Shown: in pieces, positions 11,370-12,973 of the stretch
Layout: each line of letters begins with the position of its first letter
How positions within the stretch are numbered: the first letter of the stretch is position 1
Source: Clostridia bacterium
Lineage (GTDB): Bacteria > Bacillota > Clostridia > Christensenellales > Aristaeellaceae
NCBI GenBank assembly: GCA_017527065.1
Contig: JAFXQO010000073.1
Location: 1,693 to 65,692, forward strand
Direction: 5' to 3'
Length of the DNA: 64,000 nucleotides
Translations under genes and position numbers: made by a program
The notes under the pieces: model-generated
The model's input: the letters and a program-made list of their open reading frames with translations, nothing else
Told to the model about the DNA's origin: nothing
The model's database searches: none

Positions 11370-11654
11370 GGGCGCTTCCTCCTTTGTGAGTCAGGTCTGT
11401 CGGGTTCACATACTTCTGAGCCGCCAGGCGCAAAGGCGTCCCCTTGGGCGTCCTGAAAGACGCCGATGATCTTCTGATTGATCGTTTTGGACAGTTCATG
11501 ATTGAGTCCATGTCCCGCGTTCTTCCGCTTCTTTGGCTTCTGTTGTCATTATAGCAGAAGTCGGAGCGTTTTGGAATATAGCGCACGTTTTTTTCGAGCG
11601 GCATAAGCGCGCGACGGCGGCGGGACGCCGCATGGCAAAAACCAATTTTATGAT

Positions 11655-11756
11655 AAAAAGAAAACACCCGCCTGAGCGGATGTTTCCCTATTTGGTGCCT
11701 CCATCCGGATCCGAACCGGAGTCTTCGCCATGAGAGGGCGACGTCTTAGGCCTCTT
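11655..11756. repeat. direct repeat copy A (102 bp) of tRNA-Glu 3' part plus downstream terminator
   Basis: Gap-free hand alignment with 12872-12973 gives 95/102 identical positions. Confidence 0.85.
11693..11756 (-). pseudogene. 5'-truncated tRNA-Glu fragment (D-loop to CCA, 64 nt)
   Basis: The rc reads AGAGGCCTAAGACGTCGCCCTCTCATGGCGAAGACTCCGGTTCGGATCCGGATGGAGGCACCA. The 5' acceptor strand and D-stem are missing. Confidence 0.8.
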
Positions 11757-11780
11757 TCCGTAAAGAAGACCGAAAACTGA

Positions 11781-12017
11781 TTATTGTTCAATATAATTAT
11801 AAGCCACAAGCTGCTTCAGGATATCGTCCTCAGGTATATGCTTCTCATGCAGATGGTTGCTCATTTCCCAGGCTTTTTCCATATCAATAACCCGGTGAAT
11901 CGTTATAGAACCATCTTCATGAGTATATGTCATGGTATTATAACCTTTAAAATGGAAAAAACCACCAACAACCATCTCAAGTTCTTTATCAGTAATCTGT
12001 TTTTTTTCACCAGTCAT
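11781..12017 (-). CDS. double-glycine-leader peptide precursor (bacteriocin-like / GG-motif peptide), 78 aa
   Basis: GAGGAGG lies 6 nt upstream of the ATG at 12015-12017. The leader MTGEKKQITDKELEMVVGG fits the consensus [LI][ST]xxELxx[IV]xGG exactly. The gene is AT-rich (21/60 G+C in 11781-11840, hand count). Confidence 0.7.
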   Translation of the reverse strand: MTGEKKQITDKELEMVVGGFFHFKGYNTMTYTHEDGSITIHRVIDMEKAWEMSNHLHEKHIPEDDILKQLVAYNYIEQ

Positions 12018-12097
12018 AGATAACCTCCTCATAAATGGAAAAGCAGATGATGGTATCCTTCTCCGGACGCCCTGATGCGGGAATCACCTTTTTATCG

Positions 12098-12340
12098 TTA
12101 GGTGATTTTGCGGGACTTTTCGGGATTCGGGTCCGGTACGGGAACCGGGACAGGAACCGGTACGGGAACCGGTACGGGAACCGGGACAGGAACCTCGTTC
12201 CTCTCCATCCTCGCGTCCGGACTGTTACCTTTGACGGCATCTTCCGGCCCGTCGAACAGCGGGTCTGAGGCGTACCTCCTTGTTTCCACTCCGCCCGTTA
12301 CCTTTTCCGTCTGTTCAAGATCCAGCGCTTTTCTCTTCAT
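12098..12340 (-). CDS. GG-motif small peptide precursor with a (Val-Pro)10 repeat core, 80 aa
   Basis: AAGGAGA SD upstream of the ATG at 12338-12340. The N-terminus MKRKALDLEQTEKVTGG is a weaker double-glycine leader match. The core contains (VP)10 followed by DPNPEK. Confidence 0.55.
   Translation of the reverse strand: MKRKALDLEQTEKVTGGVETRRYASDPLFDGPEDAVKGNSPDARMERNEVPVPVPVPVPVPVPVPVPVPDPNPEKSRKIT
12134..12193. repeat. tandem 6/12-nt repeat (CGGTAC GGGAAC CGGGAC AGGAAC ...) encoding (VP)10
   Basis: Ten consecutive hexamers of the form CGGKAC/RGGAAC, read directly from the sequence. Confidence 0.9.
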
Positions 12341-12754
12341 GCTTTCTCCATCTCCTTATGTATTTCTCAAAGACCTTTCGGCCCTTTACTGTTCTGCCAC
12401 ATCAGTTTATACGCGGCTGATCTCCCGGTGGCACCGCGGCGGCCCTTTTTGGGAAGAAGAATATCACATACGGATCCTGACGGTCCTGATACAGCCGCCG
12501 TAAGCGGGATATTGTCAATGCGTGTCCGGCAGGGAAAAACAGAATCCTGTCTTAAGGGTACCTGCACACTTCCATCATACACGACAATCATTGAATCGTC
12601 AACCGGAATTCAACTATGTCTAAGCAAGTCGGATAGAATCTGTGCGAATCTAAGCGACTGATCCGACGATGACGCTCCGGGTATACGCCAAAGCAGAGCA
12701 ATCGAAGCTGCCGGCAGCGGTTTCACAAATTGACGATTACCTTCACTGACGACG

Positions 12755-12790
12755 TTTTGTGCGCGGTTTTGTGCGTAATTTTGTGCGCGA
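12755..12790. repeat. three tandem 12-bp repeats TTTTGTGCG(C/T)(G/A)(G/A)
   Basis: TTTTGTGCGCGG TTTTGTGCGTAA TTTTGTGCGCGA, located inside the island and upstream (minus-strand sense) of the peptide genes. Confidence 0.85.
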
Positions 12791-12870
12791 ATCACCCAGA
12801 GCGGCGAGCCTGCCGCTGGATGGGGCAGACGGCGCGCAGAACCAAAGCGCAACAATTCTTGCAATATGGA

Positions 12871-12899
12871 AAAAAAGAAAACACCCGCCTGAGCGGATG
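12871..12899 (-). terminator. rho-independent terminator of the tRNA-Gln/tRNA-Glu operon
   Basis: The minus-strand RNA reads CAUCCGC-UCAG-GCGGGUG followed by UUUUCUUUUUU. Confidence 0.7.
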
Positions 12900-12973
12900 T
12901 TTCCTTATCTGGCACCTCCATCCGGATTCGAACCGGAGTTTTCGCCGTGAGAGGGCGACGTCTTAGGCCTCTT
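12872..12973. repeat. direct repeat copy B (102 bp), part of the intact tRNA-Glu and its terminator
   Basis: Pairs with 11655-11756 at 95/102 identity. Confidence 0.85.

Follow-up and report, generated by a model that had tools for sequence, protein, structure and literature searches.

The locus considered here raises the question of whether a small open reading frame (ORF) that encodes a long run of Val-Pro dipeptides is a gene and, if it is, what becomes of its product. The ORF (hereafter the VP gene) lies on the minus strand of a 64,000-nucleotide stretch of contig JAFXQO010000073.1, which was assembled from a Clostridia bacterium (GCA_017527065.1); this whole stretch is referred to as the window. 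The reading favored here, to which we give a probability of about 0.5, is that the ORF is a genuine pre-peptide gene on a mobile module and islet, and that its product is a cargo with a double-glycine (GG) leader which is exported by a C39-peptidase ATP-binding cassette exporter (PCAT) encoded elsewhere. Translation of the ORF, taken as a separate matter, appears quite likely from its conservation.

The VP gene consists of 80 codons beginning with ATG, followed by a TAA stop, and its product can be written as MKRKALDLEQTEKVTGG-VETRRYASDPLFDGPEDAVKGNSPDARMERNE-(VP)10-DPNPEKSRKIT. An AAGGAGA motif (12351-12357) is located 10 nt 5' of the ATG and an additional GGAGA (12345-12349) is found 4 nt ahead of it, which bears out the 80-residue ORF with an AAGGAGA Shine-Dalgarno sequence (SD) described in the original prediction. 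The ORF is embedded in a conserved module of about 380 nt that extends from about -95/-126 to +43 (blastn, upstream alignment A3) and includes a -10-like TATAAA (12406-12411). Only the left half of the 3' terminator hairpin of this module is present here, the rest having been cut off. The features of the VP gene are as follows.

12345..12357, minus strand: Shine-Dalgarno region (AAGGAGA, then GGAGA), from the sequence
12098..12340, minus strand: probable VP pre-peptide gene, from the ORF list and sequence; homologues P0001-P0006, P0011-13, P0016 and P0017
12290..12340, minus strand: putative double-glycine leader MKRKALDLEQTEKVTGG, codons 1-17 (L-12, T-7, V-4, G-2, G-1), with KVTGG invariant in alignment A1
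12194..12289, minus strand: codons 18-49, with E-x-R-x-Y, DP and PE motifs, then a variable middle part containing GPDARM (alignment A1)
12122..12193, minus strand: X-Pro tract, (VP)10 then DP-NP (Tandem Repeats Finder, repeat families, family register table)
12101..12121, minus strand: conserved basic C-terminal tail EKSRKIT (alignment A1), with the lowest regional dN/dS, 0.28
12055..12466, minus strand: conserved VP module, about -126 to +43 around the ORF (module blastn, upstream alignment A3, downstream comparison)
12574..12602, minus strand: promoter-like TTGACG-17-TATGAT (10/12), 235 nt upstream of the VP ATG (consensus scan)

The last of these is weak evidence for a promoter, since the consensus scan found two such sites where 1.8 were expected.

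The case for translation is based on a small family of relatives. A search of 5.8 billion proteins recovered six clusters of 68-92 aa (E = 1e-29 to 2e-13), one of which contains three further members. When 1.84 billion representatives were searched exhaustively with a profile, the distant relatives P0016 (6.5e-7) and P0017 (4.8e-6) were the only additions apart from one spurious Pro-rich match. The family amounts to about a dozen distinct sequences of 57-92 aa, all of which are from metagenome assemblies. Scanning the GTDB representative genomes with the family profile identified no relative, and a metagenome scan with the same profile returned only the contig of P0005, which was already known. 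The VP family is very rare and has no annotation, and its carriers are uncultured Clostridia of the gut or rumen. When the VP peptide and a second GG-leader peptide encoded next to it (peptide 2) were scanned against Pfam, NCBIfam and PHROGs, the matches were compositional or sub-threshold only, and scans of IMG/VR for both families and a search of PDB sequences with the VP family profile gave no match.

In an alignment of seven members (A1) the invariant columns are K13-V-T-G-G17, E19, R21, Y23, P27 and P32-E33, and the segment following the leader conforms to E-[KT]-R-[KR]-Y..DP..PE. Most members also keep GPDARM and a tail of the form DPNPEKS(R/S)(R/K)(I/L)T; within A1 the last seven residues are EKS[RS][RK][IL]T in five of the seven sequences and EKPRRIT in P0004. 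The middle part of the protein is dispensable, as it carries deletions of 21 or 24 nt in P0003 and P0005, and both of these indels, which lie outside the tract, keep the reading frame. An ATG preceded by a GGAG-containing ribosome site is conserved in six of the seven modules, the site being AAAGGAGAGAGAAAC in four of the other complete modules and GCAGGAGAAGAAAGC in L001, so that the lack of a translation signal, which the original prediction had named as grounds for abandoning the gene, did not come true. The remaining two sense frames are interrupted by 1-6 stops in every member. The pairwise ratio of nonsynonymous to synonymous substitution (dN/dS) has a mean of 0.59, with values of 0.45 for the leader, 0.28 for the tail and about 1 for the middle part. 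No signal of a structured RNA was found in the folding z-score (-0.96) or in Rfam, where only the tRNA reaches its gathering score. A stray repeat that happens to leave a frame open does not account for the ORF, given that about a dozen relatives keep the ribosome site, the start codon, the invariant residues and in-frame indels outside the tract.

The conserved N-terminus makes membership of the VP peptide in the GG-leader class plausible. The glycine pair (G16, G17) closes an N-terminal segment that falls within the 15-30 residues of such leaders, and, counted from G17, the window peptide has L-12, V-4 and GG at -2/-1 together with Thr at -7, where a hydrophobic residue belongs to the pattern along with those at -4 and -12. 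The looser leader match claimed in the original prediction thus holds for L-12, V-4 and GG and falls short at -7, and no leader model passes its cut-off. Five relatives (P0004, P0011-13 and P0016) have Leu at -7, and KVTGG is found in P0011-13 and P0016 as well as in A1. The sub-threshold matches of relatives to models of GG-leader families and the textbook GG leader of the adjacent peptide-2 gene also favor a leader.

A known system with which the VP peptide may be compared is CtA, the cargo of PCAT1 in Clostridium thermocellum (PMC6959990), which is likewise a small clostridial pre-peptide with a short double-glycine leader and an unstructured cargo of ~65 residues. PCAT1 recognizes CtA through the leader only (-4, -7, -12 and GG). 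In the structure of the complex (PMC6959990) the leader is helical from -10 to -4, Leu-7 and Leu-12 form a hydrophobic knot, specificity is adjusted at position -4, and the cargo, of 66 residues, lacks structure. The only helix that AlphaFold2 predicts for the VP peptide, with low confidence, comprises residues 8-12 (-10 to -6), which fits the leader helix of CtA. The two peptides differ in that the CtA gene adjoins that of its transporter and encodes a 24-residue leader with Leu at -7, whereas the VP peptide has a 17-residue leader with Thr at -7 and no transporter within 64 kb. The VP peptide also lacks sequence similarity to CtA, its cargo being an X-Pro repeat.

The predicted mature part of the VP peptide has 63 residues, of which 15 are Pro and none is Cys, with an isoelectric point (pI) of about 4.9, a grand average of hydropathy (GRAVY) of -0.7 and a net charge of about -2. 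AlphaFold2 models this cargo as non-globular (predicted template modeling score, pTM, 0.16), with an extended tract for which the predicted local distance difference test (pLDDT) is 81-85. By these properties the cargo is unlike pore-forming class II bacteriocins and unlike the Cys-dependent cores of ribosomally synthesized and post-translationally modified peptides (RiPPs). Together with its scores below all family thresholds, they agree with the original view that the core belongs to no recognized class of bacteriocin. A bacteriocin role is unlikely given the composition, and a RiPP role is also unlikely; the composition speaks against a membrane-active bacteriocin and agrees better with a signaling or surface-interacting peptide, although assigning either of the latter functions is a guess. 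To our knowledge, no current bacteriocin or pheromone class covers an acidic, disordered cargo with X-Pro repeats. The tract itself resembles the rod of TonB (PF16031) and the spacers of PspA, InlK and ClfB, which also consist of X-Pro dipeptides, are expected to be polyproline-II-like and vary in repeat number between relatives. The resemblance reflects composition alone (15.6 bits for PF16031, where the cut-off is 33), and these spacers are segments of large anchored proteins, whereas the VP tract is part of a free peptide of 63 residues.

The (VP)10 run corresponds to codons 50-69 (12134-12193), and Tandem Repeats Finder assigns 12133-12194 a period of 12 nt with 5.2 copies, 88% matches and a score of 96. 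Two 12-nt variants, A (GTTCCCGTACCG) and B (GTTCCTGTCCCG), follow one another on the coding strand in the order B-A-A-B-A, and therefore an exact 26-nt repeat occurs at a spacing of 36 nt (12133-12158 = 12169-12194). The tract of ten hexamers and its 12-nt period were correctly described in the original prediction; the proposed 24-nt period does not agree with the order of the variants. The X-Pro register continues through DP-NP to give 12 consecutive dipeptides (12122-12193) before EKSRKIT. Across the family the number of X-Pro dipeptides is 12, 12, 12, 10, 9, 7, 6 and 4, with occasional X-Ser or X-Leu substitutions, and the register is always kept. Alignment gaps in the tract between lineages measure 12, 24 or 36 nt, so tract length does change by whole units over evolutionary time.

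The variation of repeat number that was originally expected between strains from slippage is apparent between lineages in multiples of 12 nt and is not seen between strains, as there are 10 units in all contigs from ten samples of the window's species. The contigs, from nine samples in addition to the window's own scaffold, were identified by two independent routes, the VP protein and peptide 2. They are 99.95-100% identical over 4-6 kb, and because the population is near-clonal the comparison has little power to detect differences in repeat number. With a unit of 6 or 12 nt, no slippage event can shift the reading frame. Tract variation is therefore uninformative on coding, and frame-disrupting length variants, which had been suggested as a means of refuting the gene, cannot discriminate in the case of this tract. 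The tract also does not resemble a phase-variable (contingency) repeat gene, in that its unit is divisible by 3 and 10 units are present throughout the ten near-clonal samples. Two non-synonymous single-nucleotide polymorphisms were noted in the 60-nt VP tract, P69S (L102 nt 205, window 12136) and P63T (L103 nt 187, window 12154). They are two of very few in this 99.95-100% identical population, and could stem either from mutation that is truly elevated here or from misassembly of the repeat.

The VP gene is part of an islet whose composition and borders point to horizontal acquisition. The window has a G+C content of 64%, and G+C at third codon positions is 0.84-0.93 in housekeeping genes; the G+C content of the islet is 35-58%. 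Reading along the minus strand, the order is tRNA-Gln (13064-12991), an intact tRNA-Glu(CUC) (12985-12910) with its terminator, ~530 nt with no supported gene, the VP gene, the peptide-2 gene (12017-11781), a partial copy of tRNA-Glu and a second copy of the terminator. The features of the islet are as follows.

11703..12965, minus strand: 1.26 kb low-G+C islet, identical in a second flanking context (L098)
12869..12973, minus strand: direct repeat copy 1, comprising the 3' 64 nt of intact tRNA-Glu(CUC) and the terminator (12875-12906)
11652..11756, minus strand: direct repeat copy 2, comprising a partial tRNA-Glu without its 5' 12 nt and the terminator (11658-11689)
11781..12017, minus strand: gene for peptide 2, a small protein of 78 aa (starting MTGEKK) whose GG leader has I-12, E-8, L-7, V-4 and GG

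The direct repeat is 105 nt long and 92% identical between its copies, and the tRNA in copy 2 scores 21 bits against an Rfam threshold of 29. Such a repeat is the hallmark of integration at the 3' part of a tRNA gene. No integrase or recombinase is encoded in the 1.26 kb islet, which holds two small genes and one 74-aa ORF with no family match. L098 (117-1487) includes 11703-12965 of the window with zero differences, and the flanks of the two differ in tRNA-Gln, the 5' part of tRNA-Glu and the distal flank, which has a different gene. L098 represents either a recent transfer or a second locus, and a chimeric assembly at the tRNA is possible. Taken together, the G+C content, the tRNA-Glu repeats and the identical copy in other flanks bear out the horizontally acquired island of the original prediction. 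The islet is comparable to tRNA-targeted integrative elements and to integrase-less cis-mobilizable elements in its location directly 3' of tRNA-Glu, in having a repeat of the tRNA 3' part at its ends, in its foreign G+C content and in the identical copy within a second flanking context. It differs from tRNA-targeted integrative elements in its small size (1.26 kb), its lack of a recombinase and its long repeat (105 nt, 92%), which includes the terminator.

The islet DNA matched nothing in phage and plasmid collections beyond a low-complexity hit to the repeat. An empty site was not recovered by way of guaB relatives, the closest of which, L015 (90% identical), lacks both synteny and tRNAs at this place, or by way of the esterase gene that adjoins the islet, which led only to islet-bearing or broken contigs and to the rearranged L112. 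In L112 (1-167; ERZ28654223) the esterase is identical in protein sequence and has a different upstream neighbor from window position 11560 onward, so the esterase-tRNA junction is rearranged in that strain. L098 and L112 are from one sample, ERZ28654223. Between the tRNA-Glu terminator and the VP module, the window also contains a 12-nt tandem repeat, GTTTTGTGCGCG, in three copies (12754-12789; 79% matches).

Based on these observations, a C39-peptidase ABC exporter encoded elsewhere in the genome would bind the leader of the VP peptide and cleave after G17, which would lead to export of a 63-residue acidic, cysteine-free and non-globular cargo. The VP tract would act as a polyproline-II-like extended spacer between the N-terminal motif and the C-terminal tail, and its length would drift by gain or loss of 12-nt units without the frame being broken. 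The VP module, carrying its own ribosome-binding site, a possible promoter and a terminator, would together with the unrelated second GG-leader gene make up a 1.26 kb integrase-less islet that integrated at tRNA-Glu(CUC).

Several observations weigh against this interpretation, some of which concern translation and others export. Protein-level selection on the VP gene is weak. The overall dN/dS of 0.59 is no better than that of one antisense frame (0.58), which is open in six of the seven relatives, and variable sites fall at codon positions one, two and three in 26, 24 and 33 of 57 cases, a slight third-position excess. A 1-nt deletion in L093 moves the canonical ATG out of frame. With regard to export, Thr is found at -7 in the window peptide and most relatives, and 27 of the 2667 candidate start sites in the G-rich window (~1%) match the loose leader pattern; as the loose motif alone is not rare, the case for a leader depends on conservation in the relatives. 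The leader and family models tried included TIGR01847, TIGR03949 and PF04604; no leader model matched the window peptide up to E = 10, and the best relative scored 14.2 bits against a cut-off of 21.5. A domain check of the large ORFs found no C39-peptidase ABC exporter in the 64 kb window, in which the sole ABC ATPase signature (one LSGGQ) belongs to a 382-aa ORF of the importer type, and no C39-peptidase ABC transporter was found beside any relative. The copy of the gene with the 1-nt deletion, P0006 (L093, L094 80-358), has the change just 3' of the canonical ATG, and its frame can be read only from a GTG farther upstream, ahead of which no ribosome site is evident. The C-terminus of P0006 differs as well, and it may be a decaying copy.

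The points concerning export would be accounted for if the VP gene encodes a real small protein whose GG is not processed and which stays inside the cell to serve the mobile module, for example in maintenance, regulation or counter-defense. The lack of an exporter in the window or beside any relative, Thr-7 and the failure of leader models agree with such a role, as do the constant association of the gene with a mobile module and the fact that the residues directly after GG are conserved as well as the leader. An intracellular function is nevertheless rather unlikely, because the segment resembles GG leaders in lying at the N-terminus, in its acidic helical stretch and in the invariant KVTGG, and the relatives with L-7 fit the leader consensus fully. 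The unrelated neighboring gene, moreover, specifies the same kind of leader, and a disordered Pro-rich 63-mer is an improbable intracellular effector.

It is less likely still that the ORF is untranslated, being a by-product of the 12-nt repeat and of conserved non-coding DNA in a non-autonomous element, for example a protein-binding or recombination region. The weak selection and the open antisense frame described above are what such a region would give, the flanking non-coding parts of the module are conserved (75-82%) to a degree similar to the ORF, and frame-neutral variation of the tract offers no help in the matter. What argues for translation instead is that the SD and ATG are conserved at the right spacing, that the 21- and 24-nt indels are in frame while the other two sense frames are closed, that distant relatives were recovered at the protein level only and in this frame, that the pattern of invariant residues is leader-like, and that no RNA structure was detected.

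Processing as a class II bacteriocin, either as a two-peptide pair with the neighboring GG peptide or with that neighbor as the immunity protein, has little to recommend it. Genes for class II bacteriocins and GG pheromones often occur on mobile DNA. Like such peptides (ComC, BlpC, EntF and class IIb), the VP peptide is encoded by a small gene and has a GG-ended leader with an acidic helical segment; relatives weakly resemble models for class IIb bacteriocins (14.2 bits, at leader positions) and for the induction factor EntF (12.1 bits), and P0010, a relative of peptide 2, resembles a CTB-family bacteriocin (18.1 bits), all below threshold. The two adjacent GG-leader genes could also form one transcription unit from the promoter-like site to the terminator. 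The mature VP peptide is acidic, Pro-rich and non-amphipathic, however, and every model stays below its threshold. The two mature parts are alike in being acidic and hydrophilic (pI 4.9 and 5.5, GRAVY about -0.7) and in lacking GxxxG or amphipathic segments. The islet has no immunity, transporter or regulator gene, and no immunity, transporter, histidine-kinase or response-regulator gene is near the VP gene, unlike the situation at GG pheromone and bacteriocin loci.

Pairing of the VP peptide with peptide 2 is likewise not conserved. The peptide-2 gene is preceded by a GAGGAGG SD (12024-12030), encodes a textbook GG leader and belongs to a small family of its own with ~five known members. AlphaFold2 predicts a compact fold of three strands and two helices for peptide 2 (pLDDT 79.6, pTM 0.67), with a hydrophilic domain of 59 residues, and searching PDB and BFVD for similar folds with the model yielded nothing at E <= 0.001. 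This islet is the only place where the two genes adjoin. The VP gene occurs without peptide 2 in L001, where it follows a radical SAM gene, in L002/L106, where it follows an HSP70-like operon, and in L008, L089 and L090, where it lies between repeats adjoining an aminopeptidase-like gene; L004 and L005, in turn, carry the peptide-2 relative P0008 and no VP gene. The G+C contents of the VP gene (58%) and the peptide-2 gene (35%) differ by 23 points, which indicates separate origins. The functional link between the two that the original prediction proposed from their proximity is not supported by these data. It is possible that both peptides use a shared exporter.

Least credible of the alternatives is a RiPP precursor tailored by a radical SAM enzyme: the L001 gene is indeed 116 nt downstream of a gene for a 373-aa radical SAM protein whose best full-length resemblance is to SPASM-type peptide maturases such as StsB (66 bits), but such scores are far below the cut-offs (66 versus 625), this adjacency is found in one of six contexts and looks accidental because conservation of the L001 module starts only 33 nt before the ATG, and the window islet has no maturase. 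Thioether crosslinks of sactipeptides and ranthipeptides need Cys, which the VP core lacks, and membership in these radical SAM classes was rejected.

Returning to the exported-cargo reading and its mobile component, the VP module is found in unrelated genomic contexts, some of which are bordered by repeats. In L008, L090 and L091, the module and a 74-aa ORF lie between two diverged direct repeats of 133 nt, each an imperfect palindrome (L090 36-166 and 768-900; L008 139-271 and 867-1003). L092 (1-874; MEGAHIT k = 141) has identical 141-nt ends and a unit of 733 nt, and its junction repeat is a hybrid whose left part is from copy 2 and whose right part is from copy 1, which indicates, from the sequence of the junction, the product expected from recombination between the flanking repeats to give a circle or a tandem duplication. 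For the peptide-2 family, P0008 in L004 is within a 473-nt unit between 66-nt hairpin-forming direct repeats (152-217 and 625-690; 82% identical). L004 also has perfect 112-nt terminal inverted repeats (1-112 and 2863-2974), which are possibly an assembly artifact. Integron attC sites were considered for the flanking palindromic repeats and rejected, as RYYYAAC/GTTRRRY core sites were not evident by eye and no integrase was seen.

A tentative and rather improbable extension of these findings is that single GG-leader peptide genes, the VP gene among them, are the cargo of undescribed miniature mobile cassettes of 0.4-1.3 kb in gut Clostridia that are recombinase-less and flanked by repeats, with the X-Pro tract adding a further layer as a 'fuse'. 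Such cassettes would excise via direct repeats of ~70-130 nt, persist in circular or tandem form, and insert anew at the 3' ends of genes, at terminators or at tRNA genes, thereby shuffling the repertoire of exported peptides between genomes. More speculatively, X-prolyl dipeptidyl peptidases would trim the length-variable 'fuse' and free the C-terminal heptapeptide as a signal. Mobility of the mini-module may be a more novel aspect of the locus than the peptide.

If the VP peptide is exported, the range of double-glycine PCAT cargo would be extended to an acidic, disordered peptide of X-Pro repeats, and peptide genes would be seen to spread between uncultured Clostridia of the gut or rumen in the form of self-contained mini-modules, which bears on how repertoires of competition or communication peptides are exchanged in gut communities. 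Orphan GG peptides of this kind would be missed by genome mining that requires an adjacent transporter or immunity gene. If instead the ORF is untranslated, the locus would still exemplify, on a small scale, a mobile islet that is non-autonomous and located at a tRNA gene.

A final observation concerns the context in L106 and L002. The operon upstream of the module (L106 1296-4857, corresponding to L002 188-3523) encodes three proteins of 60, 143 and 279 aa with no family matches and a 646-aa HSP70/actin-fold ATPase that scores far below DnaK cut-offs. L002 and L106 are 99.4% identical and differ at the right junction of the module, just 3' of the VP stop. L002 (4345-4386) keeps the 37-nt 3' tail of the module, fused to a 5'-truncated gene for an AAA_14 ATPase, and in L106 (5679-5868) the module tail is absent and the first 83 codons of the ATPase gene are retained. 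The right border of the module is a hotspot for rearrangement.

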